Virus record (IMG/VR): IMGVR_UViG_3300028666_000026
Location: 64,001-105,391 of that record
Direction: 5' to 3' (one strand)
DNA: 41,391 bases
Origin: a virus
The position numbers and the translations under genes were made by a program. Under the pieces are notes generated by a model, which had not been told where the DNA came from, ran no database searches, and saw only the letters and a list, made by a program, of their open reading frames with translations. Shown in pieces: positions 9,068-33,904 of the stretch; the first letter of the stretch is position 1; each line of letters opens with the position of its first letter.

Positions 9068-9249
9068 CCTTTCCCACGCTGAACCCGCTCGTGTGGCGGC
9101 CAGTGGGCGCTGGCCTCTGGCGACATCACGAAACGTTTGATGGCACGTACGACTGCGGTGATTTGGCTGACGTACTTGAGTTCCTGGACACCAAAGAAGA
9201 GAACGAACTGAGATACCGCGAGGCCGTAGAGCATGCCAAACATTCTTGA
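8971..9249 (+). other. Candidate -1 programmed frameshift extension of the tail chaperone (gpGT-like). Possible slippery site G_TTT_TTC at 9007-9013
   Basis: The -1 frame is open across the chaperone 3' end, ending with TGA at 9247-9249 (EPVAFPTLNPLVWRPVGAGLWRHHETFDGTYDCGDLADVLEFLDTKEENELRYREAVEHAKHS). Confidence 0.35.
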
Positions 9250-10879
9250 CGAGTATCTTGTAAAGCTGGGCGCTACTGTAGACGCGGCTGGGTTCGCACG
9301 CTTCCATCAGGCTCTACGCGAAGCTAACATGGCCGTGACCGCAAACGTCACTGACATGGCCAAGGCGCTGTTCAAGGCCCAGGCAGAGATAGTCGGTGGT
9401 TTTGCTGCCATTGGCGGCGCGGCGCTTGGACTGGCTGACAAAGTCGCAATGGCTGACCAGGAGTACAGACTTTTCGCCCTGCACATGTTCATGTCCAAGG
9501 ATGCGGCACGCAGTCTGAAGGTGGCCATGGACGCGCTTGGCCAGCCTCTGGAGAATTTGTGGTGGGACCCGGAGTTGGCGGCTCGTACGCGGCAGTTGAT
9601 CGCTGATCAAAAGGCGATGGCTCCGGACGGCGACTTTGAAGCCCAGATGCTTAAGATTCGCGATGTACGCTTCGAGTTCACGCGTATGGGTGTGGAAGCG
9701 CAGTATCTTGGCATGCACGTTATTCAGGACTTCATGAAGGCCCTGGGTATGGGCCCAGATGACTTATTGACCAAACTGCGCGAGTTCAACAACTGGGTCA
9801 CAACACATCTACCAGAGATATCAAGGTGGGTAGTCACCAACTTCCTGCCCATTTGGCGCGACGTTGAAATGATCTTCAAAGACATAGCCATTACAGTGCG
9901 CGACTTTGCGACATTGTTTGACAACGTCATTGCGCTGTTCAGCGGCGATGGTACTTTGAAGGGCGTGGCCACATTCGATAAGTTTGCGCGTTCGGTGGAG
10001 AAGGTTGTACACGCACTGGCCATGGTTGCAGATTTCTTGGTCAAGATAGAAGGTCTGATCACTGGAGCCATTGGCGGTGGCAGCTTAGGCGGCATGATAG
10101 GTTCCATTGCAGGCGGTATAGCTGGCATACCTGCGGGACCAGCTGGTATTGCTGCCGGCATAATTGGCGGCGGTGCTACGGGGACAGCCATTGGTGGTGG
10201 TATCGGCGCTGCTTCTGGCGGCGTATTTGACTTGCTCAGACATTACAAAGTCGGGCCTTGGGCCGACAACGGTCAGAGCAACGCTATTGCAGGATTGATG
10301 GGCGGACCTGCTGCTGACGGCGTCGACGCGAATGCTGTGGCACAGCAAGCTATACTGCTAGCACAGCAAGTCTCAGACAAGACTGGTGTACGTGCAGATT
10401 TGTTGTGGTCCCAGTGGGCGCATGAAACCGGCGGTTTCACACACATCGCTGCCGCAAATAATTTGGCTGGTATAAATGTTCCTGGTGGCAATGGTTCGCA
10501 GTATAGATCATTTAACTCTTTGAGTGATTTTGGTGACTACTACGCTGGTATGGTGTCACGTAATTTTCCTGACTTGAAACGCGCAACTAACGCAGATCAG
10601 TTTGCCAGTATTCTTAAAAATTCGGGTAGACTAGGCGCGTACTACACAGGCCCTGAAAGTGCCTATGCTGGCGGCATGTCTAGGTTTGACAATGCATACA
10701 ATAGTGCAGGTGGCGGCGATGTGCACATTGGTTCTATCGTTGTGCACATAGACAAACCTGGTGCGACCAACGAGCACGTCGGAGAAGTGATCGCAAATAA
10801 AATTCAGCAAACGCAGAGTAAGCGCGTTCAGCGAAACTTGGCCGAGTTCCAAGACTTGTCTTACGGCTATGGAGGCTAA
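9233..10879 (+). CDS. Tape measure protein with Gly-zipper hydrophobic core and a C-terminal FlgJ-like glucosaminidase (peptidoglycan hydrolase) domain
   Basis: Follows the chaperone gene. Contains the GAIGGGSLGGMIGSIAGGIAGIPAGPAGIAAGIIGGGATGTAIGGGIGAASGG segment. WSQWAHETGGF...NNLAGIN...YRSFNSLSDFGDYYAGMV...YYTGPESAYAGGM matches Glucosaminidase-domain motifs. Confidence 0.6.
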   Translation: MPNILDEYLVKLGATVDAAGFARFHQALREANMAVTANVTDMAKALFKAQAEIVGGFAAIGGAALGLADKVAMADQEYRLFALHMFMSKDAARSLKVAMDALGQPLENLWWDPELAARTRQLIADQKAMAPDGDFEAQMLKIRDVRFEFTRMGVEAQYLGMHVIQDFMKALGMGPDDLLTKLREFNNWVTTHLPEISRWVVTNFLPIWRDVEMIFKDIAITVRDFATLFDNVIALFSGDGTLKGVATFDKFARSVEKVVHALAMVADFLVKIEGLITGAIGGGSLGGMIGSIAGGIAGIPAGPAGIAAGIIGGGATGTAIGGGIGAASGGVFDLLRHYKVGPWADNGQSNAIAGLMGGPAADGVDANAVAQQAILLAQQVSDKTGVRADLLWSQWAHETGGFTHIAAANNLAGINVPGGNGSQYRSFNSLSDFGDYYAGMVSRNFPDLKRATNADQFASILKNSGRLGAYYTGPESAYAGGMSRFDNAYNSAGGGDVHIGSIVVHIDKPGATNEHVGEVIANKIQQTQSKRVQRNLAEFQDLSYGYGG

Positions 10880-11755: not shown

Positions 11756-12091
11756 ATGGCCAACCAAACTATACCGCTTACCAATTCGCCCAATCAAACG
11801 TTCCAGATACAACTGGTGGTAAACGGCAATCCGTTGACACTTGCCATTGCACTGTCTTACTCTGAAATGGCTGGTCACTGGCAGATGCAGGTCATAGATG
11901 TCAACGGCAATGTGTTGATAGCCTCGGTGCCGTTGATAACTGGTTGGTACCCAGCGGCAAACATTTTGGCACAGTATCAGTATTTGAACATTGGCAGTGC
12001 GTACGTACTCAACACTGGCAATGCCACTACTGACTCGCCAGGTCCGAATAATCTCAACCAGTTCACACTGCTTTGGGGCGACAATGTCTAG
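11756..12091 (+). CDS. Small baseplate-associated protein (111 aa)
   Basis: Conserved small gene preceding the hub. Its stop overlaps the next start (ATGTCTAG). Confidence 0.4.
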   Translation: MANQTIPLTNSPNQTFQIQLVVNGNPLTLAIALSYSEMAGHWQMQVIDVNGNVLIASVPLITGWYPAANILAQYQYLNIGSAYVLNTGNATTDSPGPNNLNQFTLLWGDNV

Positions 12092-13136
12092 CACTTCCAA
12101 CATACCTCTGTGGGGCCAAGCATATGAGTTGACCGTAACCTACGCGCAGCCTAACAGCGAGCCCACGACGGTCACACTGTCTAGTAATGCTTGGGAGCCG
12201 GAAGCGCTGCGTATAAAGTTTGAAGTGTTGCAGAGCACGCTACCGTCGCCTTGGTGGTTTGCCGATATAACGGTGTATAACCTCAATAAACCAGAGCGTG
12301 CCAACGCATTGCAGTATGCAACCTGGGTAGAGTTAAAAGCTGGCTTCCAAACTGGACCATCCAAATCAACCATCATTTGGAACGGTCCGGTGATGCAGAC
12401 CATTCTTACTCGAGAAAATGTTGTGGACATTGGCATAACATTCCATTGCGTGGCCAATCCTTTTGCAATGGAAAGTATTATCAGCTTTTCTTCGGGGCCG
12501 TATAGTAGTCAAGCGCAACTGTTAGTACAAATGTCCAACGCAATAGGTTTGCCAGAGGTGTCTGCTACCAATGGTACGGTGGGACAGGCTGCATCAACGG
12601 CACTGGACGCTAAGAAGTATCTGCGTGGCAATACTGTGTTCGGTAAAATGGGTAAGTACATTTTGCAGATTGCCAACGATCAGTTTATGCAAACTTGGCG
12701 CGATGGACAAAAAGCGTACATAACCAACTTGAGCAACCCAGACCTCACTCCTTTTGTCACCTACAGTCCGCCGTACCCACCCGGCGTGCCTGTGCCGCCT
12801 CTTTCCGGAGACACTACGTTCAGTCTTATTGGCACGCCGCAGCAGACACCACAAGGCGTCATATTCACGGTACTACTGGACCCCAGGCTCAGCGTAGTGC
12901 TACCGCCAAAAGTGGTGCAGTTGAAGCGTACAGTAGTGAATGTTATAACAGTTTCGCCGGGCGGCGGCGTAGCTACGCCACTGAGTAGCGATTTGAAATT
13001 ATTGGTTTCGCAGGTTAGACATGTCGGCGATTCGCGCGGCAACGATTGGTATACAGAAGTGACTGGTGTGAGCACCACTTACGCACAAAGTATGTTGGAC
13101 GGCGTGTTCGGTGCTACAGCAGCTGGAGGTAACTAG
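12084..13136 (+). CDS. Baseplate hub protein (P2 gpD/Mu gp44-like), 350 aa
   Basis: Start at ATG 12084 overlaps the upstream stop (the ORF-track start at 11991 would overlap by 100 nt). Size and position match gpD-like late control/hub proteins. Confidence 0.5.
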   Translation: MSSTSNIPLWGQAYELTVTYAQPNSEPTTVTLSSNAWEPEALRIKFEVLQSTLPSPWWFADITVYNLNKPERANALQYATWVELKAGFQTGPSKSTIIWNGPVMQTILTRENVVDIGITFHCVANPFAMESIISFSSGPYSSQAQLLVQMSNAIGLPEVSATNGTVGQAASTALDAKKYLRGNTVFGKMGKYILQIANDQFMQTWRDGQKAYITNLSNPDLTPFVTYSPPYPPGVPVPPLSGDTTFSLIGTPQQTPQGVIFTVLLDPRLSVVLPPKVVQLKRTVVNVITVSPGGGVATPLSSDLKLLVSQVRHVGDSRGNDWYTEVTGVSTTYAQSMLDGVFGATAAGGN

Positions 13137-13872: not shown

Positions 13873-14217
13873 ATGATTCCGCAGGGAACTTCGCTAGTCA
13901 ATGCTGCTTTCTTCACGGCGTCTGTAGACGCTGTAAATGCCGCGACATCTTGCGCAGCATTGAATGCGGCGTCCAGCGATGCCGTAGCCTCTCTAGAAGC
14001 TGAGATAACAACGGTCACGGCGCAAATATCATTGCTGGCTCCGTTAATTGTGTCTCCAACAGATTTGCCTTCGGTGCTGACTTGGATTGGCAGTGTTATA
14101 GCTCCCATGGTAACGACGCACACCAACTGTATCGCGCAGTTGGCAGAACTAAATACAAGGCTCACCACATTAACGGCTGCCATAGCAGCTAAGTCAGCTT
14201 CTTTGGGGTGCCCATAA
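13873..14217 (+). CDS. Hypothetical Ala/Thr-rich baseplate protein (114 aa; possible spike-tip or accessory)
   Basis: GAGGG SD. Sits between the spike and W-like genes. Confidence 0.4.
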   Translation: MIPQGTSLVNAAFFTASVDAVNAATSCAALNAASSDAVASLEAEITTVTAQISLLAPLIVSPTDLPSVLTWIGSVIAPMVTTHTNCIAQLAELNTRLTTLTAAIAAKSASLGCP

Positions 14218-14609
14218 TGGCCGCTGCACCTACCATTACGTATCTGCTGCTGGATGCGCAGTATGATCCGGTGTTCGAGCCACAAGTTTCGCTAACAAAT
14301 GCGCAAGCAGTAAGTCAGGCTATTTTGACTCGGCTGCGTTTATTTCTTGGTGAGTGGTGGGAAGATTTGAATTTAGGCTTGCCTGTCTTTCAGCAAATGC
14401 TGGGGCAGCCAGGCAACAATCGCGTACAAGCAGCCATGAATCTAGCTATTCAAAGGCAGATTGAGGGCGTGCCATATGTTACGCAGGTCAACAACATAAC
14501 ATCACAATTCACGGCTGGCAAGTTTTCCTTTACTGCATCTGTGCAGACTGCTTTCGGCGTGATAGTTGTGAACAACGTACCGGGCTTGCAGGCCAGTTTG
14601 GACACATAA
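14217..14609 (+). CDS. Baseplate wedge protein (gpW/gp25-like), 130 aa
   Basis: ATG at 14217 overlaps the upstream TAA (TAATG). LGEWWEDLNLGLPVF motif and a size of ~130 aa match W/gp25-like proteins. Lies upstream of the J-like gene. Confidence 0.45.
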   Translation: MAAAPTITYLLLDAQYDPVFEPQVSLTNAQAVSQAILTRLRLFLGEWWEDLNLGLPVFQQMLGQPGNNRVQAAMNLAIQRQIEGVPYVTQVNNITSQFTAGKFSFTASVQTAFGVIVVNNVPGLQASLDT

Positions 14610-14612: not shown

Positions 14613-16037
14613 ATGTCAATTCCGCCTTACGCACCGGCCAGTGTCGGACCTGCAGGACTGCAAATCAGCACGTACCAATCAATTCTGCAGGACAATCTTC
14701 AGGCTTACCTCAACATATTTGGCGCTAATCAATACATAGCGCCAGACTCAGCAATTTATCAGTTACTCTCCATTCTCTCGTTGAAGCAGTCTGACTGCAA
14801 CCTTGGTCTGTTGCTGGCGTACAACCAGAGTAGTCCGCAGACAGCTGTCGGCGCTGGGCTGGATCGCACGGTGAAGTTGAATGGCTTGGCGCGTGCGCCG
14901 TTTACATACTCCATAGCAGTACTCACACTCGTTGGCGTGGCAACACCGCCCACGGTACTCAACAATTGCTTTGCCCAGGACAGCAATGGCAATTTGTGGG
15001 CTATCCCCAGTGGAACCACATTTGTTACAGGCACCATCAATGTAACGGCTACATGCACCACGCCTGGTAATGTCACAGCTGAACCGGGTGCAATCAACAT
15101 CGTAGCGACGCCCACGTTGGGTTGGACTAGTGTTATCAATATAGCACCAGCCACAGCCGGCAACCCGGTAGAGACTGACAGTCAGCTGCGCGCGCGTCAA
15201 TCTATCAGCGTTGCGCGGCCTTCGCTCACCACATTGCAGTCCACTATCGCCGATGTGCTAGCCGTCACCGGCGTGACTCGTATAAACCCTGGCACGCCCA
15301 CTCCAGGTGGACCTGGCACTTCCATTGAGAATCCTACTGGCGCTGTGGATTACTGGGGCAACCCACCGCACAGCATCAGCATGGTGGTGGAGGGCGGCGC
15401 TGATTTAGACGTAGCCACTGCTATCTACATCGCTCGTGGCATAGGCTGCTTTACTAATGGCACCACATCTGTGCCAGTGGTCGACGCCAATAGTGGTTAC
15501 ACAATGAATATCAGCTTCTTCAGACCGACCTATTTGCCGATCGCGGTGTTTCTCACGGTAATACCTCTGGCCGGTTACACGTCGGCAACCAAGACGGCCA
15601 TTCAATCGGGAATAGTGAATTACCTGAACAGCCTTTCCATCGGCGAGAATGTGGTGTACAGTGAATTGTATGGCGCGGCCCTTACGGCGCGGCCCAACCC
15701 CGATCAACCACTGTTCTCCATTACAGCTTTGACTAGCGGAGCATTGGCTGCGCAGCCCCAAGCCGCACTTGTTGGCGGCAACCCTGTAGTGACGGTAACC
15801 TCAGCCGCTGGCATTGCCGTAGGGCAGTTTGTGCGTGACGAAACCACGCCTGGACACTTCCCAGTTGGCACAACGGTGTCTAACGTGGCTGGCACTAGCA
15901 TTACACTTTCCAACGTTGCTGCGGTCACAGTGCCTGCCGACACGCTGTCTTTCTTCACCATGGGCAACACAGATATAACGGTGCCGTACACCAACGTCGC
16001 CAAAGGTGTGCCCAATGATGTGGTGGTGACGCCATGA
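14613..16037 (+). CDS. Baseplate J-like protein (P2 gpJ/Mu gp47/XkdT-like), 474 aa
   Basis: Size and position between the W-like and I-like genes. N-terminal MSIPPYAPASVGPAGLQISTYQSI... Confidence 0.5.
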   Translation: MSIPPYAPASVGPAGLQISTYQSILQDNLQAYLNIFGANQYIAPDSAIYQLLSILSLKQSDCNLGLLLAYNQSSPQTAVGAGLDRTVKLNGLARAPFTYSIAVLTLVGVATPPTVLNNCFAQDSNGNLWAIPSGTTFVTGTINVTATCTTPGNVTAEPGAINIVATPTLGWTSVINIAPATAGNPVETDSQLRARQSISVARPSLTTLQSTIADVLAVTGVTRINPGTPTPGGPGTSIENPTGAVDYWGNPPHSISMVVEGGADLDVATAIYIARGIGCFTNGTTSVPVVDANSGYTMNISFFRPTYLPIAVFLTVIPLAGYTSATKTAIQSGIVNYLNSLSIGENVVYSELYGAALTARPNPDQPLFSITALTSGALAAQPQAALVGGNPVVTVTSAAGIAVGQFVRDETTPGHFPVGTTVSNVAGTSITLSNVAAVTVPADTLSFFTMGNTDITVPYTNVAKGVPNDVVVTP

Positions 16038-16669
16038 TTCCCAATCCGGCTTACGGTGTAACCGGGTATGGACTAGGCGGTTATGGCAATCAGCCCATCG
16101 AATCTTTGCCACTTGGGTACTACCTAGCACTGCTGACCTCGGAGTACAGACAAAATTCACCGAAGCTGAACGCTTTGTTGTATGTGCTGCTTCGCAAATT
16201 TGATGATGTGACCACTTGTCTGGTGAAGCTGGACACGGCTCTGGATCTGGACAGCGCCATGGGAGCACAGCTAGATCAGATAGGCGAAGTAGTACAGGCT
16301 TTGCGCACAGTTGGCTTTCAGCCTAGCGGCGGTGTTAGTCCTGTGCTGGATGATGACACGTATCGGCTCTACATCAAGGCTAAGATAGCACGCAATCAAT
16401 GGAACGGCCAGATAGATAGTCTGTATACGATTTGGAAGCAATTGTTCCCTGCCGGCACGATTGTCATTGAGGATAATCAGAATATGTCAGTGAACATTTT
16501 GCTGACGGGTGCGTTTTCTTCCATCATCCAGGACCTGATAACCAATGGTTACATAATTCCCAGGCCGGAGGGCGTACTGTACAACTACATATTCGGTGTG
16601 CTACCGCTGTTTGGCTTCGATCAAGCGCCGGGATTCATAGACGGCTTCGACGTTGGTCACTGGGCCTGA
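16034..16669 (+). CDS. Tail protein I-like (P2 gpI/Mu gp48/XkdU, DUF2313-like), 211 aa
   Basis: ATGA overlap with the J-like gene. Conserved position and size. Confidence 0.5.
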   Translation: MIPNPAYGVTGYGLGGYGNQPIESLPLGYYLALLTSEYRQNSPKLNALLYVLLRKFDDVTTCLVKLDTALDLDSAMGAQLDQIGEVVQALRTVGFQPSGGVSPVLDDDTYRLYIKAKIARNQWNGQIDSLYTIWKQLFPAGTIVIEDNQNMSVNILLTGAFSSIIQDLITNGYIIPRPEGVLYNYIFGVLPLFGFDQAPGFIDGFDVGHWA

Positions 16670-16678: not shown

Positions 16679-17245
16679 ATGTCATCAACTAACATGCAGC
16701 AGTGGAACCCCACTGCCACTAATCAAGAGTCTGACGCGGCGTACACAGCGGACTCACAACGAGCTGGCGGGGCCACAAACCCCTCCATCTTCGCGTCCAT
16801 ACTGGCCAACAAGGCGTTCTTCCAATTCAGCACTTACCTAACAGCGTTGTTTACAGCCTTTGCGAATAAAGGCTTCGCAACTAGCGATGCCTCGCTAGCT
16901 ACTCTGACCGCGCAGTGCGCTAATTTTCTTACCACGGCTGACGTTCATGCCGGTTTACAATACGTGCCATTTTCGCCGACGTTGGCGTTTGCGTGTGCCA
17001 GCTACGATGGGTTCCAGGTAACTCTTACTGGCAATCTTACGTTCTCACTGTCTTCGCCAAGTATCGGACAAAAGATAACGCTGGCATTCACGCAGGATGC
17101 TACTGGTGGTCGCACAGTCACCTGGCCTGGCAATGTTGTCGGCCATGGCACTATTGATGGCACCGCCAACGCAACTAGTCAGCAGCTATTTGAAGTGCTG
17201 AATGACAATCTGCTGCACCCACTCGGCGTAATGACGGTGAGCTAA
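16679..17245 (+). CDS. Tail fibre-associated protein (188 aa)
   Basis: GAGGAGG SD. Immediately downstream of the baseplate wedge genes. Confidence 0.4.
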   Translation: MSSTNMQQWNPTATNQESDAAYTADSQRAGGATNPSIFASILANKAFFQFSTYLTALFTAFANKGFATSDASLATLTAQCANFLTTADVHAGLQYVPFSPTLAFACASYDGFQVTLTGNLTFSLSSPSIGQKITLAFTQDATGGRTVTWPGNVVGHGTIDGTANATSQQLFEVLNDNLLHPLGVMTVS

Positions 17246-17247: not shown

Positions 17248-17646
17248 ATGGCTGGCGAGACTACGACACCGAACATTGGATTGCAGATACCGGCCTTCGA
17301 TCAAGCCAACTGGCAGGTTCCAACCAATTTCAATTGGGCATTGCTGGATAAGATTTTTGGCGGTGAGATTCAGGTTCCAGCGCTCAGCGTGATAACACTG
17401 ACGGCAGTAAACTTTGAATTGCCCAGCGTAATCGCCACCATAGCTACGGCGTTCACGGTTGAGTCCGGCACATTTGTGTCTGGGACCACCTACCAATTCA
17501 GCCACATACCGATTGTTATGTTTGGTGTGTACGTCAATGGCGTTTGGCAGCGACCGGGCGTGGATTACACGTCAGCTGGAAATCAAATCACGCTTGCTTA
17601 CACCTTGCTCAGCGGAGATACACTGTATGCGACTTACCTTCACTAA
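17248..17646 (+). CDS. Tail fibre N-terminal/collar-like protein with a C-terminal YVNG-PGVDYT module (132 aa)
   Basis: TPNIGLQIPAFDQANWQVPTNFNWALLDKIFGG resembles conserved tail-fibre N-termini. The C-terminal module is shared with the genes at 2994 and 5203. Confidence 0.45.
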   Translation: MAGETTTPNIGLQIPAFDQANWQVPTNFNWALLDKIFGGEIQVPALSVITLTAVNFELPSVIATIATAFTVESGTFVSGTTYQFSHIPIVMFGVYVNGVWQRPGVDYTSAGNQITLAYTLLSGDTLYATYLH

Positions 17647-17695
17647 AGCAATCCTGGCAGGGCTCTTGATAACGCTGAGTTGTGTAGCTGGTGCG
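17627..17695 (+). other. Predicted Sec signal peptide (cleavage after AGA)
   Basis: Basic n-region, 14-residue hydrophobic core, AXA site. Confidence 0.45.
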
Positions 17696-19876
17696 CAGCA
17701 GCCTCAGAGCATAAATCCAGCCACACAAATTCAATGGCCGAAGATAACTGGTAATGGCACACCGACCAGTCTCAGCCTTTCCTGCTCGCCGTTGAATTAC
17801 GGCCAGCCGTATCAGAATACTGGCGTCACTCCCAATACCACGTACACCTGCGGCTCAGATGGGTGGGCTCAGCGCGGTAGTGGCGGCGGCGGTGGCGGAG
17901 CTGTGAATGGCGTTATCGTCACCACTTCTACTACGGCTTCGTGCGGACAGTTGGTGCGTGTCAACAATGGTTCGACGCCTGTTACCATCACCATGCCTCC
18001 CGGGCCACCCACGGGTTGTCAGGTGGTTGTCGAGCGCCAGTACAATTCCTCTGCTACGGTAACAATTAGTCCAAATGGCGTACCCTACGACGGCGTAACT
18101 ACTCAATTGCCCGTCGCCGAGGCCGTACTTGTATGGACAGACGGCACCAACTATCACTCTTCCGTGCCAGTAATCTATGGTGCTGGATTCACGATCACTC
18201 CTGCTGCCACTGGATTGGGGTTGGCTGCGAATGGCGTAGGACCGTACCCATCTACTACTAACTTCATCTTTGTCAGCTTCAGCGGTCTGTTCGATGACAA
18301 TCATGTTTTGAGTACTGCGGTACCTGTTTCAAGTATTAGCTGCGATGGAGTATCGCTGTGTACCGTGAACACTTCGTCTGCCCACGGTTTGGTGGTGAAC
18401 AGTCTTAACAATGGTTTTGTGGATCTGTCGCAAATTACTGGTTGGGGCGCAACCGGGCAGAGCACGAATAAGGGATCGTTCAAGGTAGCGTCGACGCCCA
18501 CGTCAACACAGTTTACTGTTGCTTCTAATCGGTCGTCATTTTCTTGTTCTAGCTCGTGCGGAAACATTTACAACGCTGGATACTGGGCTATATATCAGAC
18601 GGCTACAGAGCCGTTTATTAAAAATAGCGGTGGGACAGTCATCGGTATTGAGGACACTGCAACTGATTTGAACACTAACTTCTCTACTCTTGTTGCTCCG
18701 CTATGCGGGCTGACGGGTCCAAACTACCTCATTCTTCTTGTTGGTGCAAACGACGCAAACATTGGATCAACGGCGGCTACCATTGAAGGCTACCTAGTAG
18801 GAACCGGAGCAAACACGGGTATATGGTATCAAGCACATACTGCTGGCTGTAAAGTCTTGCAGGGGACATTTACAGCTGCCAATTATGGGTTCGCTACGCC
18901 AGAAGGAGTTTATCAAACTATTCGCGAGGTGAATCGCTGGATTCCCAAAAATGCCAAGTCGGCGACGAATGCCTCAACAGGTCAATATTGGGACGGCATC
19001 ATTGACTATAACGGAACGATGGCTTGGGCCGGTGGACAGAATGGCAACTATCTTCTTGGAGGAGACACAAACTCAGCTTATCAATTTGCTCAGATCACCA
19101 ATGCGGCTCTTGCGAACCAGCAGAGTATGCTATCGGGACCGTGGGCAGGCATGTATGGGCAAGATGGTGGCAATGCCATAGGATTTGACGTAGGAGGTGG
19201 CTGGCAGTTTTACGGTGACACCACTAACTATTTCATGGGTTGGAACAAGCAGGGCGTATGGCTGCATCAAACTCCCGGCAGTGGAGCATCCTTACTGCAA
19301 GACATTCCTACGCAATCTCCCTCTGGTACGTGGGATGTTTGTCCCTATTTGATGGGCCAGCAATTTGATCCGACTTACGGCGGAACCAATACTGCCGAAG
19401 TTTACTGTTGGCACAACGTAGGTTCCGGAAATGCACAGAACTACGCTTGGTTTGGCGGCACACAGTACGCCGCGTTTCCAATTCAGCAGTTATTCCTGTA
19501 CATGGATGGCACGCTTGGCTTTCCTGGGTACACTGTAGGCGGTTCCGACAAATACCTTGGCCTGGATCACACTAACAACAAAGTTAAGATCATGCCAACG
19601 CCGCCGCTGAGCAGCACGCAGACCACCGTCAGCTGCTCAACATCTGGTACTGCTGTGTTTTCGCAAACGCAAACAACAGTCGACAATCGTGTGCTGATTC
19701 ATCTTTCAGCCTGCCTGGGTACAGCCAGTTACACGTATCCCGTGGCGTACACCAATACGCCTAGCGTGTTCGGGTCTAACAATGTGGCTGCGACAGTGGC
19801 TACTTCAGTCAGCACATCGGCGGTAACTGTGACTGGCGCAACCAGCACCGGCGCTCTTGTTCTTGAGGACTACTAA
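17627..19876 (+). CDS. Large protein with a predicted Sec signal peptide (749 aa); possible SGNH-like esterase motif (LILLVGANDA). Function uncertain: fibre distal part or secreted enzyme
   Basis: ATG 17627 with GGAGA SD. N-terminus MRLTFTKAILAGLLITLSCVAGA-QQ has a classic n-h-c signal peptide layout. The ORF-track start at 17459 would overlap the upstream gene by 187 nt. Confidence 0.5.
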   Translation: MRLTFTKAILAGLLITLSCVAGAQQPQSINPATQIQWPKITGNGTPTSLSLSCSPLNYGQPYQNTGVTPNTTYTCGSDGWAQRGSGGGGGGAVNGVIVTTSTTASCGQLVRVNNGSTPVTITMPPGPPTGCQVVVERQYNSSATVTISPNGVPYDGVTTQLPVAEAVLVWTDGTNYHSSVPVIYGAGFTITPAATGLGLAANGVGPYPSTTNFIFVSFSGLFDDNHVLSTAVPVSSISCDGVSLCTVNTSSAHGLVVNSLNNGFVDLSQITGWGATGQSTNKGSFKVASTPTSTQFTVASNRSSFSCSSSCGNIYNAGYWAIYQTATEPFIKNSGGTVIGIEDTATDLNTNFSTLVAPLCGLTGPNYLILLVGANDANIGSTAATIEGYLVGTGANTGIWYQAHTAGCKVLQGTFTAANYGFATPEGVYQTIREVNRWIPKNAKSATNASTGQYWDGIIDYNGTMAWAGGQNGNYLLGGDTNSAYQFAQITNAALANQQSMLSGPWAGMYGQDGGNAIGFDVGGGWQFYGDTTNYFMGWNKQGVWLHQTPGSGASLLQDIPTQSPSGTWDVCPYLMGQQFDPTYGGTNTAEVYCWHNVGSGNAQNYAWFGGTQYAAFPIQQLFLYMDGTLGFPGYTVGGSDKYLGLDHTNNKVKIMPTPPLSSTQTTVSCSTSGTAVFSQTQTTVDNRVLIHLSACLGTASYTYPVAYTNTPSVFGSNNVAATVATSVSTSAVTVTGATSTGALVLEDY

Positions 19877-19942
19877 GTGAAAATACTGTTGAAGTGTGCG
19901 CTGCTGAGTGTACTCTGCCTTCTCCCTACTACAGTTGTGGCC
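19877..19942 (+). other. Predicted Sec signal peptide (VVA-QT)
   Basis: MKILLK n-region, Leu-rich h-region, AXA cleavage motif. Confidence 0.5.
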
Positions 19943-22900
19943 CAGACTTGGCGTTCATTAGCCACGGCTCGTGGGTTCACAATGGGTTGCGGCGACACGG
20001 ATCCATCCATTTTCAATAGTGATGGCACATTCAACGGTCTGGTTGCGGCTCAGTGTAACAGTATAGAGCCTGGTAATGTCATGAAGCAAAATGCGATGGA
20101 GCCGTCCAATGGTGGCTACGACTTCTCGCAAGCTGATTTGGTAATGAACTATGCGGCGGCCAACTCGCAGTCAGTCACGGCGACCGCTCCAGTTTGGGAT
20201 AATGCTAGTTATGGAGGAGGCACTCCTTCATGGGTTTCTGGCCTGAGTTCTGGCGCGCTGACGACGGCGCTGCAGAATTACGTTAATCAGTTCATGACCC
20301 ACATGCACACCAATTATCCTGGTCGCATGAAACAGATAGCACTTGTAAGCGAGGCCAGCCATCAGTGTCCCAATGGCAGCTATAATCCCGGCTATGGAAC
20401 TGGACCTTACTGCTCTATACTAGGTCCTGATACGTCTTCTGGTTCCTACGCTTCGCATGTATCTGGTTTAACCTACTTCCCTGAATACGTCACTGTGGCT
20501 TACACTCAGGCACGTGCCAGCGATCCCACTGCGCAACTCTGCTACGATGACTGGGGCTGGGAGGGTAGCGGCGCAAGTGGCTATCAGTACTGGCTGGTTG
20601 CGTATCTTAAACATCTGGGACTTGTAGACTGTGTTGGCTTGGAAGGTCAATGGCAGTATAACGCGATTCCCACCAATGTGCCATCAACTGGTTCAATTTC
20701 CTCAACTATCAGTGCGTACCAGGCTCTTGGTGTCACCGTTTACTTCTCACAAGTTCAGTTGGGCATACACACAAATGGCACCAACAATAACGTGCCAAAC
20801 ACTTACACGTCAACAGTGCCTGCCGACCTTACTACGCAAGCTAGTACATACTCTGCACTTCTCGGAGCTTGTCTAGCCAACACGACGGCCTGCAATGCTT
20901 TCTATGTGTGGGGCATATCGGATAAGTGGGCATTCATTGATGCGCCATCACCCTACGGAGTTGGCGCACCGCAGCCGTATGACGCTTCGTACAATCCAAA
21001 AGCGGCGTACACTGCAATCCAGACGGCATTGGCTTCGGGTGGCGGCACTACCTATGCACTCTCGACTGCCACCACAGGAAGCGGAACTGGAACTGTCACA
21101 GGGTGCGCTGGCAACTATGCGGCATCGGTTGCATACTCATGCACAGTGACTCCAACAGGCGGCTCGACTTTATCCAGCGTTACAGGGTGCGGAGGGTCAG
21201 GAACCACCACCTACTCTGGCTCCATGCCGGCTTCGGCCTGCACAGTTACAGCCACTTTCTCTTCTGCCGGCTGTACTGCCAGCAGAACCGCAGCCAGTCT
21301 GAATCCTTCAGACGTGTTGGCCGCGCTGAACGCCGTCAATTGCCCGACGTCCACCGTCAGTCTACCTGCTGGGCATGTGGCTTGGTCCTCTGCCATTGCC
21401 TACACAATGCCGTCAGTGATCACTAGCTTGACATTGCAGGGCGCCACTACGCTGGCCTGCACCGGCACGCCTGCAACATCGGGGTACAGTTGCACTCCTA
21501 CAGACAACACCATCATTGAGGACGCGTACCTCTCCAACACTTCACTCATTACGCTTTACTTGACCAACTCGGCCACTTCTGTCATGCGCATTACAGGCAT
21601 AACAATGCAGGGCGGCAGTGCTGGCGGCAATTCCAAGTATAACGGGTTGATTGATGTGTACAGTGGCTCGCTGCAACTGCGCTACGACCACGATCACTGC
21701 AACATGTCCACGTACTCGCCTACTAGTACGGCGTCTGTATGTCTACGCACATTCGGTCCTGTCACTGGCGTTGCAGACCACAACAAAATTGAGCTGGCTC
21801 CGAACTCTGGCGGATTCCCGACACTGCAGACCTTCTCCTTCGGCTTCTCCATATTTGGCGCATACAACGACTCCATTGGCAACGGCGATGGCACGTTCTC
21901 GCATCCTACGCCTTGGGGCTCACTCACGTCGTTCTATGTGGAGTCCAACGTATTCATAGGCGGATACACAAATGACTGCGGCGGCGCTGGAGCCATGGTC
22001 ATTCGCAATAACAATACACAGGGCAGTTACACGCAGACACACGGCACCAAGTCTGCAGCTGGTCCCGATCGTGGATGCCGCATGTACGAGGCATACCATA
22101 ACTACATCACCGGACCCACATCCGGCATAGGTCCGCTGGATGCTGTGTTCGGCTCGAAGAACGCGACTGCAATGATCTGGGGTAACACGCTGGTGAACGG
22201 CTTCTACCGCTACACCAACTTGTGCACGGATCGTAACTCCTGCGAAACGCCGGAGACTGCGCCACCAAATGGTTGGGGTTACTGCGGCACGGTTCATGGC
22301 GGGTCTGACTCAGCTTGGGACGGCAATAATAATGTCGGCTCTGGTTGGCCCTGCCTGGACGGTATCGGACGCGGTCAGGATACACAGGCTCTCAATGGGC
22401 AGGCGTTCCCAGGTAGACTAAATTCCATCACTGGCACAGTGGCGTGGTCACACCAGTATCTGGAGCCAATGTACTTCTTCATGAACTCGGGTACGCCACA
22501 AGCCGGTGTATTCGCCGAAGTAGGTTCTACCGATACCACAAACAATCGCGACTTCTACGCTGATTGCTCGGCTAGCAATGCTGGCTGCACAGGAGCATTT
22601 ACTGGCGCAGCTGGTACTGGCTACGGTCTGCTAAGCGCACGTCCGTCAACCTGCACAGCAGGTCCTGGCGGCACATATGCTACCAGTCCCACGGGCAGTT
22701 ATGGCGTAGCGTACTTCGCGACTGATGTGAATGGCGGCTTGGGCGGTCTGTATGTTTGCACAGCTACCAACACCTGGTCGTCTACGTACATCTACACGCC
22801 AGCCGCATATCCGCATCCACTCGCAGGCGGCACGCCGCAAGTCAACACGCCCACGGCCACTCCTATTGCGCCATACACTGGCACAGCAACCACTGTTGCG

Positions 22901-24439
22901 CTGGCTGACACCACACCTTCTGCCGCTATATGCTACACAGTAGACGGCTCCACACCCACCGCGCCCACACCGGGCACCTGCTCTGGCGGCACCACGGCGC
23001 TGTACACCACACCAATCAGTGTGTCGTCCACCACCACCATCAACGCTATTGGCACGCTTGCGGCATATCTGAATAGCGCGCAGTTCAGCGGCCTGTACAC
23101 CATTAGTGGCTCGTCTGTCTGCGGTGATCCTACCCAGAATGGTCCCAATTACTCGGGCACTTACAACGTGCCGCCGACAACGTTGCCGCTGGCCGTTGGC
23201 TTTACTTCGCCCACTGCTGGATGCGTCATGCATTACACGGCAACCACGGACGGCTCCACACCAGCTGCACCAACTTGCGGCGATACGACGTATCCTGGCG
23301 GCGGGTTCTCAATTACGTCAGGTGGCACGTATATCTGGCGTACTATCGCCTGCCAAGGCGGATACACCAGCTCAAACATCATAGGCGGCACCTGGACAGT
23401 TTCTGCACCAATACCAGCTTCGTTGACCGTTACAGTGAATGGCACTGGCAGCGGGTCAGTAAGTAGTTGCCCGTTGGGAACCTCAGCACCCACCGTTGGC
23501 TCGTCTGTAACATGCGCAGGCGCGCCTGCTGCCGGGTCCATGGTGACTTCGTCCGGTACTGGTAGTGCTGGCGCTTGCACTGGTGGCGGCTGTACGTTCA
23601 CTTTCAATGTCACTTCGACACTGACATATACATTCATTGCGCAAGCCTCGCCACCACTCATCACGCCGTCCACCGGCACATACACTGGAGTGCAGACTGT
23701 GTCCATGACTGACTCCACACCAGGCGCGGTTATGCGCTACACGCTTGACGGCTCAACACCCACCGCAGGCTCCACTCTGTACAGCGGTTCGTTCTCGGTG
23801 TCGGTCTCTACCACTGTACGCGCCATAGCTATTGCCAGCGGATACACGAACAGCGGCGTGGGGCAGTCTGTCATCACCATCAACTCCACATGCGGCAATC
23901 CAACTCAACTTGGGCCTAACTTTTCGGGTCCGTACAGCTCGCCACCTACCACGCTGCCAATATCTATCGGCTACACTTCGCCGACGGTTGGCTGCAACAT
24001 GTTCATGACGTTGGACAGCAGCACACCCACGTGTCTCAGCACTGCGTATGCTGGGCAGTCAATTTCCGTTACCACTACGATGAAGGTTTTGGCTTGTCAG
24101 GCAGGGTACACTTCGTCTGCTGTGCAAAGCGGAACTTGGTCTATTAACCCACCGGCGGTCACACCATTGTTCTCGCCAGTTACGGGTACGTATTCTGGCG
24201 GCACAAGCGTTAGCATTTCCACCGCAACGTTGGGCTGCAGTGCGTACATTTATTGGGCTACGCACACTCCGCCTACTACTGGTGACAATCATGGCATAAC
24301 CTTCTTCATGACGACTCCGGGCACTTACTATGCCAAGGTTATCAGTTGTCCTGGGTATACCGATTCGTCGGTTGGTTTTGCTACGTACTCTATACCGGGC
24401 GCACCTGCACTACTCATCGCTGTACCAGCAATTGAATGA
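19877..24439 (+). CDS. 1520-aa secreted multi-domain glycanase-like protein: Sec signal peptide, GH10-like (beta/alpha)8 domain, parallel beta-helix-like middle region, about six C-terminal beta-sandwich (CHB_HEX_C/Fn3-like) modules
   Basis: GTG start with GAGGA SD. N-terminus MKILLKCALLSVLCLLPTTVVA-QT. GH10 motifs: NSIEPGNVMKQNAMEPSNGGYDFSQADLVMNYAAAN, LVSEA, AYTQARASDPTAQLCYDDWG, VDCVGLEGQWQ. Repeated TPT...YT(L/V)DGSTPT modules. Confidence 0.6.
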   Translation: MKILLKCALLSVLCLLPTTVVAQTWRSLATARGFTMGCGDTDPSIFNSDGTFNGLVAAQCNSIEPGNVMKQNAMEPSNGGYDFSQADLVMNYAAANSQSVTATAPVWDNASYGGGTPSWVSGLSSGALTTALQNYVNQFMTHMHTNYPGRMKQIALVSEASHQCPNGSYNPGYGTGPYCSILGPDTSSGSYASHVSGLTYFPEYVTVAYTQARASDPTAQLCYDDWGWEGSGASGYQYWLVAYLKHLGLVDCVGLEGQWQYNAIPTNVPSTGSISSTISAYQALGVTVYFSQVQLGIHTNGTNNNVPNTYTSTVPADLTTQASTYSALLGACLANTTACNAFYVWGISDKWAFIDAPSPYGVGAPQPYDASYNPKAAYTAIQTALASGGGTTYALSTATTGSGTGTVTGCAGNYAASVAYSCTVTPTGGSTLSSVTGCGGSGTTTYSGSMPASACTVTATFSSAGCTASRTAASLNPSDVLAALNAVNCPTSTVSLPAGHVAWSSAIAYTMPSVITSLTLQGATTLACTGTPATSGYSCTPTDNTIIEDAYLSNTSLITLYLTNSATSVMRITGITMQGGSAGGNSKYNGLIDVYSGSLQLRYDHDHCNMSTYSPTSTASVCLRTFGPVTGVADHNKIELAPNSGGFPTLQTFSFGFSIFGAYNDSIGNGDGTFSHPTPWGSLTSFYVESNVFIGGYTNDCGGAGAMVIRNNNTQGSYTQTHGTKSAAGPDRGCRMYEAYHNYITGPTSGIGPLDAVFGSKNATAMIWGNTLVNGFYRYTNLCTDRNSCETPETAPPNGWGYCGTVHGGSDSAWDGNNNVGSGWPCLDGIGRGQDTQALNGQAFPGRLNSITGTVAWSHQYLEPMYFFMNSGTPQAGVFAEVGSTDTTNNRDFYADCSASNAGCTGAFTGAAGTGYGLLSARPSTCTAGPGGTYATSPTGSYGVAYFATDVNGGLGGLYVCTATNTWSSTYIYTPAAYPHPLAGGTPQVNTPTATPIAPYTGTATTVALADTTPSAAICYTVDGSTPTAPTPGTCSGGTTALYTTPISVSSTTTINAIGTLAAYLNSAQFSGLYTISGSSVCGDPTQNGPNYSGTYNVPPTTLPLAVGFTSPTAGCVMHYTATTDGSTPAAPTCGDTTYPGGGFSITSGGTYIWRTIACQGGYTSSNIIGGTWTVSAPIPASLTVTVNGTGSGSVSSCPLGTSAPTVGSSVTCAGAPAAGSMVTSSGTGSAGACTGGGCTFTFNVTSTLTYTFIAQASPPLITPSTGTYTGVQTVSMTDSTPGAVMRYTLDGSTPTAGSTLYSGSFSVSVSTTVRAIAIASGYTNSGVGQSVITINSTCGNPTQLGPNFSGPYSSPPTTLPISIGYTSPTVGCNMFMTLDSSTPTCLSTAYAGQSISVTTTMKVLACQAGYTSSAVQSGTWSINPPAVTPLFSPVTGTYSGGTSVSISTATLGCSAYIYWATHTPPTTGDNHGITFFMTTPGTYYAKVISCPGYTDSSVGFATYSIPGAPALLIAVPAIE
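22850..24400 (+). repeat. In-frame tandem array of about six 80-95-aa beta-sandwich modules inside the 1520-aa gene. Two CGxPTQxGPN(Y/F)SG modules alternate with TGTYTG...DGSTPT modules
   Basis: Repeated peptide motifs read directly in the translation. These are protein-coding repeats, not a CRISPR array. Confidence 0.5.
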
Positions 24440-25202: not shown

Positions 25203-26045
25203 ATGCTACCTGTATCACCCGCAGGTCGTCGTTACGGCGTCTACCGTGACAACCCGCTTCACCCGGCACGTACTTTGCTTCGATTGTCCGTGCCGGCTGA
25301 TATACAACTGCCGCCAAAGGCTTCAACTTCGCAGTGGATGGGCCGCATCCGGGACCAGGGCCAGGAAGGCTCCTGTACTGGACAGATGGGTTCTGCGCTG
25401 CGTGACGCTCTGTACCGCAAGTTGTACATTTTTGAAAAAGACAAGAGCGTAGTGCCTTCTGCGCTTTCCGTTTCAGCATCGTTCGTGTACAAGTGCAACT
25501 TGATTGCCGACGGCGATTTGGGCACGGATGCCGGCAGCTCCATACATCAGACATTCATCACTCTCAATCAGAAGGGCGCTTGTCTGGAGGCGCTGGAACC
25601 GTACAGCGACAATGACTATTCTGCGCCACCCAGTGCTGCACAGTACGCAGGTGGTTTGACGTATCGTGGCGGCTCGTATCATTTTCTGCCTGATCTGATC
25701 ACCATGAAGGCGTGCATTGCCAGCGGATATCCGCTAGGCTTTGGCATTTCTGTGTACTCGTCGTTCGAAGACAGCTGGTCAGTTGCTGGCCAGATGCCCA
25801 TGCCAGACGTCAAGACTGAGCAACTGCTGGGCGGTCATGCGCAGCCGGTGTTCGACTATGATGACGACCTGGTATTTGCGGACGGCTACAAGGGCGGGTT
25901 GCTTATTCAGAACTCTTGGGGCACAAACTGGGGCGTATCTGCGCCAGGGCGCACAGACGGAGGCTGCTACTGGATGCCGTATGCCTACGTGGAGGCTGGT
26001 CTGGCCAATGACGCATGGATGATGCATCTTGGCAGGCCGTGGTGA
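25203..26045 (+). CDS. Papain-family (C1A) cysteine peptidase
   Basis: Catalytic triad motifs QGQEGSC (Cys), GGHAQPVFDYDDD (His), NSWGTNWG...GGCYWMPYAYV (Asn). No long propeptide. Confidence 0.7.
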   Translation: MLPVSPAGRRYGVYRDNPLHPARTLLRLSVPADIQLPPKASTSQWMGRIRDQGQEGSCTGQMGSALRDALYRKLYIFEKDKSVVPSALSVSASFVYKCNLIADGDLGTDAGSSIHQTFITLNQKGACLEALEPYSDNDYSAPPSAAQYAGGLTYRGGSYHFLPDLITMKACIASGYPLGFGISVYSSFEDSWSVAGQMPMPDVKTEQLLGGHAQPVFDYDDDLVFADGYKGGLLIQNSWGTNWGVSAPGRTDGGCYWMPYAYVEAGLANDAWMMHLGRPW

Positions 26046-26563
26046 AGTACGAGGAGCTTCGGCCACTAGTGCGCACTGGCGACATTCTTGGCTACCACGG
26101 CGTCTCGTGGTTGTCCAAGACCATTGAGTTCTTCACTGGCCGCCGTGATCAGCTGGCCTGGAGTCATGTGGCAGTCTTTTACTGGGACGGCGCAGGACTC
26201 TGGGTCGCGCAGGAGTACGAAGGTGTGGGCTTTACTTGCCAGCCAGCTTCGCAGCTAATTGGCAAGCTGCTGGCTGAGCATGGTAATTGCTACTGGGGCG
26301 CTGCGCCTGTGTTCATCACAGACAATTCACGCGGCATACTGGAGCTCATATCTACGTACAGAGTAACGCCACAACTTCGACCGTACGGCTACGGTTCGCT
26401 AGTACGTATATTGTTTGGCGGTAGTCTTGATCCTTCTTCTGTGCAAGCTGTATGCAGCATATTTGCACAGCAAGCCTGGGAGCGCTGTGGCTACAAATTC
26501 TCGCGATTATTTGCGCCTGAAGATTTCAAGCGCGTGATCACTAACATCAACTCAATTGAATAA
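26015..26563 (+). CDS. Permuted NlpC/P60 (LRAT/YiiX-like) papain-fold protein; putative cell-wall peptidase or amidase (alternative GTG start at 26042 overlapping the upstream TGA)
   Basis: GDILGYHG ... SHVAVFYWDG (His) followed by HGNCYWG (NCxxF-like Cys motif), in permuted order. Translationally coupled to the C1 peptidase. Confidence 0.4.
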   Translation: MDDASWQAVVKYEELRPLVRTGDILGYHGVSWLSKTIEFFTGRRDQLAWSHVAVFYWDGAGLWVAQEYEGVGFTCQPASQLIGKLLAEHGNCYWGAAPVFITDNSRGILELISTYRVTPQLRPYGYGSLVRILFGGSLDPSSVQAVCSIFAQQAWERCGYKFSRLFAPEDFKRVITNINSIE

Positions 26564-26576
26564 AGGAGCAAGGACA

Positions 26577-27119
26577 ATGCAAAATCTTTCGCGCAGGTCT
26601 TTTGGTAAGAGTATGGTGGGTGCTGCTGGTCTCACATTGGTTAGCGGTGGCGCACTACTCACTGAGGGCTGCAGCAGTCAGCAAGTCATCAATGAGATCA
26701 ATGTGGTACTGCAGCAGATAGCTGGCGTGTTGGCTCAGGTTGAGCCCAACGCACCTTGGGCGCAGGAGCTGCGTAATGCCATCTCAGCATTGCTGTCGGC
26801 AGAGCAACAGTGGCAGGCTGGCGGCGCGGTACAGGTCGTGGTAGACGTACTGAATACAATCGTGGCCATCACGGCTGTCATCCCCATCACCGCTCCTTAC
26901 TCGCCGTTGATCGACATTCTGGTTGCCGGCATAGAGGCCATTCTTGCGGCGCTTCCGCAGTCCACCAAGGCCGAGCGCACGGCTTCGTCGTTGGGCAACC
27001 CGCACGTCGGACGCACCGTCATCAAGCACCGCCTGTTGCATTCGTATGCTTCTGACTGCAAGACTCAGTGGAACGCGCAGGCATTGGCCCTGGGAATGCC
27101 CACGGCGGTTATCGCGTAG
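26577..27119 (+). CDS. Tat-signal lipoprotein (180 aa)
   Basis: AAAGGAGCAAGGA SD. MQNLSRRSFGKSMVGAAGLTLVSGGALLTEG-C has a twin-arginine motif (SRRSFGK) plus a lipobox Cys. Confidence 0.5.
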   Translation: MQNLSRRSFGKSMVGAAGLTLVSGGALLTEGCSSQQVINEINVVLQQIAGVLAQVEPNAPWAQELRNAISALLSAEQQWQAGGAVQVVVDVLNTIVAITAVIPITAPYSPLIDILVAGIEAILAALPQSTKAERTASSLGNPHVGRTVIKHRLLHSYASDCKTQWNAQALALGMPTAVIA

Positions 27120-27125: not shown

Positions 27126-27635
27126 ATGGCAGACTTCCAGTCGTGCTTCGCATTTATGATGGCCAACGAGGACAGTGCTAACCTTCACGCACAAGTGTCT
27201 GATGCTTGTCCGCCTGGTGTGGCTGGTCCTTGTTGGGCCATCAGTGGGATTAACAGTGGCGTGTATCCTACGCAGTTCTCTGTGCTGGCTGCCGCGCCGC
27301 AAAGTGCACGTGGGCCGCTGGTAGAAGTCTTCTACAAGACGTACATCTGGGACCGATGGTTTGGTGCGGCCACTTCTACAGATTTGATGATGCGGGTGTT
27401 CGACTGCACAGTGAATCTTGGTGAGCGCAAAGCCGTTCGACTGCTGCAGCAGTCAGTACCAGACAGCTCGCTAGTACCTGACGGTCTTTGGGGTCCGGTA
27501 ACGCTGGCAGCTGTGAATGCAGCTGACCCGGTGGCTACACTGACGGCCTTCAAGGCCGCGCGCCGAGAGCACTACTTACTCAATGATGCCAATAACCCTG
27601 CTCTGTCAGCATTACTGATCAGAGCAGCTAAGTAG
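27126..27635 (+). CDS. Endolysin: GH108-type muramidase N-domain with C-terminal PG_binding_3 domain
   Basis: C-terminal RVFDCTVNLGERKAVRLLQQ...VPDGLWGPVTLAAVNAADPVATLTAFKAARREHY matches the PG_binding_3 pattern, which normally accompanies GH108. Last gene of the late operon. Confidence 0.5.
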   Translation: MADFQSCFAFMMANEDSANLHAQVSDACPPGVAGPCWAISGINSGVYPTQFSVLAAAPQSARGPLVEVFYKTYIWDRWFGAATSTDLMMRVFDCTVNLGERKAVRLLQQSVPDSSLVPDGLWGPVTLAAVNAADPVATLTAFKAARREHYLLNDANNPALSALLIRAAK

Positions 27636-27689: not shown

Positions 27690-28016
27690 TTAATGCTCGC
27701 GCAGCCGGAGCTTCGCAGGTGGCGGTGGCGGCTCGCGCAGTGCAGGGCCGGGCAACTTCAGCACAGCGTCCAGCTTGTCCAGGAAGCTGCGCGCTTTGGC
27801 CAAGTCCTCCAGGCCATTCTTCTGCAACCACCGAATGACGTAGCGACATATCTGCGCTTCCAGGTATGGCATGCGAGCAAATAAATCCCAGTGTTGAATT
27901 TCTCCGCCGCAGTGCGGGCATTGACCTGCACAGTTGGAGTAGTGTGACCCGCCCACCTGTGCCACCACGGCTGTATTGGCTCCCACTACGCGCACTGATT
28001 TCTTTAAGATGGGCAT
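27690..28016 (-). CDS. DUF3310-like protein (GGSHY motif)
   Basis: GGAGAAG SD. Motifs GGSHY, WDLFA, YVIRWLQKNGLEDLAKARSFL are typical of phage DUF3310 proteins. Confidence 0.5.
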   Translation of the reverse strand: MPILKKSVRVVGANTAVVAQVGGSHYSNCAGQCPHCGGEIQHWDLFARMPYLEAQICRYVIRWLQKNGLEDLAKARSFLDKLDAVLKLPGPALREPPPPPAKLRLREH

Positions 28017-29655: not shown

Positions 29656-29699
29656 CTGTTCTCCTTGCTTACAGGGGTTGAGAGTGCCCACCCTTAATT

Positions 29700-33886: not shown

Positions 33887-33904
33887 GTATTCTCCTTGCA
33901 ACAA

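Follow-up and report, generated by a model that had tools for sequence, protein, structure and literature searches.

A signal-peptide-bearing, fibre-like protein with a degenerate SGNH centre encoded in the tail region of an uncultured myovirus-type phage

The gene and its predicted signal peptide

We analysed a window of 41,391 nucleotides (nt), the whole stretch from position 64,001 to 105,391 of IMG/VR record IMGVR_UViG_3300028666_000026, which is the late region of an uncultured myovirus-type phage. Our target is a + strand gene in its tail/baseplate module, lying after the baseplate J gene, a DUF2612 wedge gene, and two short fibre-like open reading frames (ORFs). An earlier note on this DNA had placed the gene correctly at 17627-19876; it runs from an ATG at 17627 to a stop codon at 19874-19876 and encodes 749 amino acids (aa). 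The product belongs to a large, uncharacterised family with a modular, fibre-like build, which we found in phage-like contexts only, and what is new is that such a family combines, as read from sequence, near-universal cleavable signal peptides carrying Gln at +1 with a degenerate SGNH centre. A Shine-Dalgarno-like GGAG motif (17612..17615, + strand) stands 9 nt before the ATG, and the first 20 nt of the gene are shared with the end of the 132-aa ORF before it. A longer version starting at TTG 17459 is unsupported because every homologue begins at M(K/R) followed by a hydrophobic segment.

The N-terminus of the target reads MRLTFTK-AILAGLLITLSCV-AGA/QQ, where the slash marks the predicted cleavage site, and comprises a charged n-region, a 13-residue h-region with a Kyte-Doolittle value of 2.57 over 12 aa, and an A-x-A motif at -3/-1. 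All signal-peptide calls here were made with a hydrophobicity heuristic that looks for n-, h-, and c-regions and small residues at -3 and -1. The canonical Sec signal proposed by the earlier note was borne out by these features and by similar N-termini in the relatives. The signal peptide thus looks genuine, of the canonical Sec/signal-peptidase-I type, and we infer that the protein is indeed exported and cleaved. With Gln24 at +1, the target also follows the “Q-rule” described for signal-peptidase-I substrates of Bacteroidetes (PMC5837995). Porphyromonas phages are reported to have a few genes for Q-rule signal-peptide proteins (PMC10367356); these, like the target, are phage-encoded.

A signal-like N-terminus was present in 122 of the 144 listed family representatives with a Met start, even though the N-terminal sequences themselves could not be aligned. 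Several of the other 22 were truncated or had been given a wrong start, with a signal lying farther inside the sequence. Of the 122 signal-bearing relatives, 99 (~80%) have Gln as the first polar residue beyond the h-region, preceded in 96 of them by a small residue. At least five types of N-terminal module, unrelated to one another, follow the signal in these sequences. Because the signal is kept across unrelated N-termini, it appears to be under selection, which argues for genuine processing. Gln at +1 also occurs in other, unrelated signal-peptide proteins of related phage loci. Signals throughout such a family are odd, given that phage tails are assembled intracellularly.

Within the window, signal-like N-termini were found in only 3 of 49 ORFs, and these three are consecutive (17627, 19877, and 24436). 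The earlier note had described two consecutive exported proteins, of which the target would be the second. Predicted export of adjacent genes holds, since the next protein also carries a signal; the count and the order do not, as there are three in a row with the target first. A fourth candidate, a 187-aa ORF at 26556-27119, carries a twin-arginine motif (SRRSFGK).

Cysteine content offers independent support that fits an extracytoplasmic, oxidatively folded protein. The 22 upstream virion genes, taken together, contain 0.60% Cys (33/5463), compared with 2.0% in the target, 3.0% in the downstream glycoside hydrolase family 10 (GH10) protein, and 3.0% in the lipoprotein that follows it. This is a 3-5x enrichment of the predicted exported proteins over the virion proteins (Fisher p=3e-4 for the target, p=3e-13 for the three pooled). 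The mature target would contain 14 Cys arranged as seven neighbouring pairs, two of them (239/245 and 307/311) conserved across the family.

Genes of the late block abut or overlap throughout, and both the start and the stop of the target touch its neighbours. Around the target, we detected no promoter or terminator of its own, as promoter-like sites (8 against 10.4) and terminator-like sites (14 against 12.3) were at chance level. Because of this tight packing and these chance-level counts, the target reads as part of the late head-tail-lysis operon and not as a self-contained insert. Accessory genes of the lom/llp type, by contrast, would have their own promoter and terminator apart from the late operon.

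Fold and conserved residues of the SGNH centre

An AlphaFold2 monomer model built with 71 family sequences had a mean pLDDT (predicted local distance difference test) of 72, rising above 90 in the core (aa 210-510). The core is modelled as a three-layer alpha/beta/alpha fold around a five-stranded parallel sheet, so the resemblance to SGNH esterases seen by the earlier note was upheld by structure prediction. The top Foldseek matches were the acetyl-xylan esterase PbeAcXE (7toh/7tog; E 9e-5) and Ape1 (4k3u; E 2e-4) at 12-17% identity, and their alignments of ~400 columns exceed the length of a bare SGNH domain. Baseplate-J-like proteins of phages were matched as well, over ~86 aa (prob 1.0); the search output did not give the aligned query residues, and these matches probably fall in a beta-barrel inserted between blocks I and II. 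Pfam Lipase_GDSL_2 matched the target below threshold (19.5 bits vs a cut-off of 32.9; E=0.0015) and over aa 364-444 only. Both this family and SGNH sequences in the Protein Data Bank (PDB) line up with the target at block III. A phmmer search of the target against the PDB gave a single match, to a retroviral capsid, which we regard as chance.

Around this core, the layout is that of a modular protein (Table 1). The region at aa 24-205 holds a “INPATQIQWPKITGNGTP” module shared with the relative P0009 and others, as well as a G6 linker (aa 86-91, nt 17882-17899), and N-terminal modules are swapped among family members. The beta-sandwich-like domain at aa 511-660 is conserved in relatives. The overall composition (T 12.7%, G 12.7%, S 8.9%) agrees with the Ser/Thr/Gly-rich body with a G6 linker that had been described.

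Active-site conservation was tabulated from the core region of 112 aligned relatives. Block I reads F-S219-G-L-F-D-D, an F-S-G motif instead of G-D-S, with Ser219 directly after the strand at 212-217 and aligned with the Ser of “VVGASQD” in P0009. Ser219 is conserved in 96% of the relatives (108/112, the remaining four having a gap), Asp223 in 92%, and Asp224 in 100%. Conservation is 78% for Gly336 of block II, 82% and 96% for Asn375 and Asp376 of block III, 97% for His404, and 96% for Asp456. In the earlier assignment of motifs, LILLVGANDA (aa 368-377) was read as block III, which the alignments support through LVGANDA, and IGIEDTATD (aa 339-347) as block I; its IGIED instead sits in the block II strand.

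The catalytic base is a different matter. The distant relative P0009 resembles the target in its N-terminal module only. Its SGNH domain, at the same place, is a textbook one (…VVGASQD…, …DNLHPT…), and an hhalign profile alignment sets its DNLHP opposite LLGGDTN in aa 472-482 of the target. No block V Asp-x-x-His was found in the target or in the 112 aligned relatives, where the His-equivalent column holds Asn, Pro, or Gly and no column in the block V part of the domain is rich in His. Candidates for a displaced base fared no better. His404 lies at the end of helix alpha3, and it aligned to the far end of that helix in TesA. Because of this position and its recurrence as “AHAKG” in the genuine esterase PbeAcXE, we ruled it out as the base and consider it probably structural. 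His226 (“DDNH”) was ruled out at 36% conservation, and His334 (“GHGT”), the other well-conserved His near the site, is present in 74% of the family and is Ser in the target.

By alignment and model, the target keeps the SGNH fold and three of its four blocks without the catalytic Asp-His pair. This loss of the base suggests binding rather than turnover. It also makes doubtful the suggestion that the protein is a deacetylase of exopolysaccharide or O-antigen, given the missing block V in target and relatives and the replacement of His334 by Ser.

Table 1. Coordinates of the target, its parts, and other genes of the window (positions in the window)
Feature	Position	Strand	Remarks
Target gene	17627-19876	+	749 aa; signal peptide
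Signal peptide, aa 1-23 (MRLTFTKAILAGLLITLSCVAGA)	17627..17695	+	predicted cleavage before Gln24
N-terminal beta-rich region, aa 24-205	17696..18241	+	pLDDT mostly 40-85, low confidence
SGNH part 1	18242..18319	+	strand beta1 and block I F-S219-G-L-F-D223-D224-N-H; Ser219 at nt 18281-18283
Inserted beta-barrel, ~70 aa, aa 232-300	18320..18526	+	between blocks I and II; conserved C239/C245
SGNH part 2, aa 301-510	18527..19156	+	block II …GGTVIGIED/G336; block III LVGA-N375-D376; AH404TAG helix end; D456/D460; block V position without Asp and His
Beta-sandwich-like domain, aa 511-660	19157..19606	+	strands 526-656; pLDDT ~60-90, moderate confidence
Ser/Thr-rich C-terminal region, aa 661-749, and stop	19607..19876	+	low-confidence model; variable among relatives
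Major head protein	1411-2478		
Sheath	6711-8105		
Tape measure	9233-10879		
Baseplate hub	11991-13136		
Baseplate W-like wedge subunit	14208-14609		
Baseplate J	14613-16037		
DUF2612 wedge protein	16034-16669		
Short fibre-like ORF188 (188 aa)	16679-17245	+	no signal peptide
Short fibre-like ORF132 (132 aa)	17248-17646	+	no signal peptide
GH10/CHB_HEX_C protein, 1520 aa	19877-24439	+	predicted exported; signal …TTVVA/QTW
Lipoprotein-like ORF, 169 aa	24436-24945	+	lipobox LVAG/C
Muramidase-like gene with peptidoglycan-binding domain	27126-27635	+	last gene of the + strand block

Relatives, neighbouring genes, and host signals

A profile search of 1.84 billion representative sequences recovered 810 relatives at E<=1e-3, 362 at E<=1e-10, and 123 at E<=1e-30. 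A word-index search had given only 8 relatives, and the impression of a tiny family was dropped after the exhaustive search. No homologue of the target was found by tblastn in 50,697 GenBank phage records (INPHARED), and no PHROG or NCBIfam family matches it; the target thus shows no homology to a described tail-fibre family. All 8 examined gene neighbourhoods of relatives were phage-like. They are tail or structural neighbourhoods, and the position of the relative within related modules varies; in two E217-like myoviruses, it comes after the baseplate hub and before the next gene of the baseplate. Several loci have a further predicted exported gene behind the relative, encoding a CHB_HEX_C protein or a lipoprotein. 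Carbohydrate-related or exported companions were noted at L002 13146-15572, L003 282-2231, L010 14410-15321, and L011 7884-9341 (related loci, by our numbering). They include an arabinofuranosidase-type catalytic domain, signal-bearing CHB_HEX_C proteins, and a 485-aa signal-bearing protein; the arabinofuranosidase-type gene is in L010, two genes downstream of the relative.

We scanned 39 diverse relatives against Pfam and PHROGs. Lipase_GDSL_2 was matched by 4 of them (E up to 7e-7), CBM_5_12 by 2, and a pectate-lyase-like family, Pur_ac_phosph_N, and OSK by 1 each. OSK is the domain of Drosophila Oskar (5a4a; PF17182), a eukaryotic RNA-binding domain that is biologically unrelated to the target. 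PHROG tail-fibre, tail, or virion families were matched by 5 of the 39, through other modules.

The two short ORFs upstream of the target have counterparts inside its relatives. ORF132 aligns, at 36-64% identity, with the stretch immediately behind the signal peptide (aa ~20-108) in P0130, P0094, P0150, and P0063; for ORF188, the matching parts are the C-terminus of P0058 and the N-terminal part of P0047. Because these modules occur fused inside signal-bearing relatives from other phages, ORF132, ORF188, and the family proteins appear to be built from a single pool of modules. The ORFs that follow the wedge gene in L001 showed no homology to ORF188 or ORF132.

Downstream of the target, the protein encoded at 19877-24439 combines a GH10 domain with CHB_HEX_C and Fn3_assoc repeats. 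Two PDB alignments show that its nucleophile motif, T-E-[IL]-D in GH10 enzymes, reads S-Q-V-Q at aa ~289-293, with Glu replaced by Gln, while the acid/base Glu is retained. Judged by these residues, the protein is probably catalytically dead and may be a lectin-like dead enzyme. Its nucleophile loss points the same way as the target, suggesting binding and not turnover. No type IX C-terminal sorting domain was matched in the target or this neighbour with Pfam or NCBIfam.

Farther along the window, the ORF at 25203-26045 has a weak match to papain-family C1 peptidases (E=2e-4). Past the muramidase-like gene, the minus strand carries genes that serve thymidine hypermodification and replication. 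The hypermodification cluster (28004-33904) includes a 5-hmdU (5-hydroxymethyldeoxyuridine) DNA kinase (E=2e-44), an amino-acid:DNA transferase fused to a glutamine amidotransferase, a thymidylate-synthase-like gene, and an HD-domain protein.

Signals pointing to the host are mixed. The Q-rule had led us to a Bacteroidota host, and we withdrew this assignment as unsafe because Shine-Dalgarno motifs are frequent in these phages (44-68% of genes) and Bacteroidia lack such motifs (PMC7797042). In the window, they precede 21 of 48 genes vs a background of 7.6%, and in five related loci (L001-L003, L009, and L010), they precede 46-68% of genes against a background of ~8-14%. A Q-rule lineage outside Bacteroidia is possible, as is another phylum; Ignavibacterium, for example, has a Q-value of 77% (PMC5837995). 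No tRNAs were found when we searched for them as a host clue. A first scan of GTDB genomes for family homologues gave no match. A second genome scan gave one, in a metagenome-assembled genome labelled Gammaproteobacteria, where the 20 kb around the match are all phage-like. This stretch (L011; CAVRHU010000002.1, 202-222 kb of 638 kb) carries DNA-polymerase-like and ATP-grasp-like genes and could be a prophage, a misassembly, or part of a mislabelled bin.

Possible role and comparison with known systems

Our best explanation, with a probability of roughly 0.45, is that the target, built like a tail fibre, is exported, stabilised by disulfides, and able to recognise surface sugars, and that the host envelope is where it acts. 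We favour it because the signal appears to be selected, Cys is enriched, the neighbours are predicted to be exported, the position of the gene is variable, and the catalytic base is lost. In such a scheme, the 23-residue signal peptide would carry the protein through the inner membrane, and signal peptidase I would cleave before Gln24, which may then cyclise to pyroglutamate. The mature protein, with its seven neighbouring Cys pairs, would fold oxidatively outside the cytoplasm. Its SGNH centre with the inserted beta-barrel would offer a pocket lined by Ser219, Asp223/224, Gly336, and Asn375 and lacking an Asp-His base. This pocket would most likely bind an O-acetylated or related sugar of the envelope or capsule and may hydrolyse it weakly or by a non-canonical route. 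The protein would thereby mask or modify the phage’s own surface receptor, in the periplasm and, after lysis, on the infected cell and its debris, possibly together with the exported GH10 neighbour. Receptor masking of this kind would limit superinfection and the loss of progeny.

Several observations weigh against this explanation. Tail fibres would be expected at precisely the position of the target, and the window lacks any further long fibre gene. The shuffling of N-terminal modules resembles that in receptor-binding proteins, the low-confidence termini could be trimeric fibre segments, and 5 of the 39 scanned relatives match the PHROG families named above. The hydrophobicity heuristic leaves room for an uncleaved signal-anchor. 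Invariant Ser219 and Asp224 might signal a non-canonical catalytic site and not mere binding, and the host signals conflict, with a Q-rule known from Bacteroidetes set against strong Shine-Dalgarno use.

The main rival follows from the first of these points. Phages commonly have receptor-binding proteins of the SGNH type (PMC13123978), and the target could likewise be a virion tail fibre or receptor-binding protein, an alternative that we regard as possible but rather unlikely. Besides the position just after the baseplate and short fibre genes and the PHROG matches of relatives, it would account for the overlap of the target start with ORF132, which suggests translational coupling. It would also fit the presence of ORF132 and ORF188 modules inside family proteins of other phages and the exchange of both N- and C-terminal modules around a conserved core. 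However, tailed-phage virions assemble in the cytoplasm, and a cleavable signal with Gln at +1 across ~120 diverged members argues for periplasmic processing, as the Cys enrichment fits an extracytoplasmic protein. If the target is a virion fibre, then it must either be exported, fold oxidatively, and join fibre-less particles only once periplasm and cytoplasm mix at lysis, or carry a signal that goes unused in vivo. Moreover, the gene changes place in otherwise syntenic tail modules, following the hub in L001 and L002 and the fibres in the window, which is more typical of an accessory gene, and the target itself has no PHROG match.

The remaining alternatives concern activity. Receptor destruction by an active esterase would call for a non-canonical site in which Ser219 works with another base, such as Asp223/224. 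The conservation of these three residues (92-100%), the retention of Asn375 and Gly336, and the proven esterase activity of SGNH receptor-binding proteins from other phages (PMC13123978) speak for this. Still, with block V lost, no His at hand, the family’s His334 replaced by Ser in the target, and His404 probably structural, we consider it improbable. More improbable again is an auxiliary metabolic role, in which a secreted enzyme of the acetyl-xylan-esterase type would act with the GH10 protein to boost hemicellulose breakdown by the host. The top Foldseek match to PbeAcXE, the GH10 gene next door, the arabinofuranosidase-type gene near a relative in L010, and the finding that ~5% of prophage CAZymes (carbohydrate-active enzymes) have signal peptides (PMC13507307) would all suit such a role. 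It is opposed by the missing block V His and Asp, the Gln in place of the GH10 nucleophile, the location of both genes in a late structural operon, and the fibre-like flanking modules.

If the target is exported, as we favour, then the cell being killed receives, within or on its envelope, large phage proteins that recognise sugars, a situation that bears on superinfection exclusion, on the loss of progeny to debris, and on the prediction of host range from genomes. If it is instead carried on virions, fibre attachment must occur outside the cytoplasm. A broader proposal, which we hold to be unlikely, is that a large class of tailed phages makes periplasmic, fibre-like proteins for host recognition that are Sec-exported, cleaved by signal peptidase I, pyroglutamate-capped, and disulfide-bonded and either attach to finished particles only after lysis or act as free, receptor-binding decoys. 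If true, tailed-phage biology would have an extracytoplasmic branch that has not been described; we found no precedent in the literature for signal-peptide-bearing tail fibres. For annotation, phage proteins with SGNH or GH10 folds should not be taken as active enzymes by default, because the target and its GH10 neighbour both seem to lack a catalytic residue.

That SGNH domains occur in phage receptor-binding proteins is already established (PMC13123978; G7C gp63.1). The known SGNH-esterase fibres and tailspikes (G7C gp63.1, 4qnl; SFP21A Gp09, 9lna; Klebsiella prophage proteins, PMC13123978) are virion proteins made in the cytoplasm and have no detectable sequence homology to the target. The proteins of PMC13123978 are demonstrated esterases, which implies an intact catalytic site, whereas the target lacks Asp-x-x-His; they are described with no mention of “signal peptide”, whereas the target has a predicted cleavable one.

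In fold, the target is like PbeAcXE and Ape1, and it shares the “AH-x-G” motif with PbeAcXE, but neither has the fibre-like flanks of the target. Both enzymes are bacterial and keep their catalytic site intact, and Ape1, a peptidoglycan O-acetylesterase, also has an extra domain inserted in its SGNH fold. A further likeness, in architecture and not expected to reflect homology, is to the haemagglutinin-esterases of influenza C, toroviruses, and coronaviruses. These join an SGNH module to an inserted lectin domain, pass through the secretory pathway, and act on O-acetylated surface sugars, combining receptor binding with receptor destruction. They are envelope glycoproteins of eukaryotic viruses and have an intact Ser-His-Asp triad.

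The earlier note had called consecutive exported proteins in a tail-fibre locus highly unusual. This is too strong for small exported accessory genes in tail regions, for which lambda lom and T5 llp are precedents, but it does apply to a large, fibre-like protein with a predicted signal throughout its family. Lambda Lom, T5 Llp, and phi80 Cor are Sec-exported, are encoded beside tail or receptor-binding genes, and have a presumed role in changing the cell surface or blocking a receptor, much as we propose for the target. By contrast, those proteins are small, single-domain, and typically under their own regulation, whereas the target is a fibre-like protein of 749 aa, encoded in a late operon, with hundreds of relatives.

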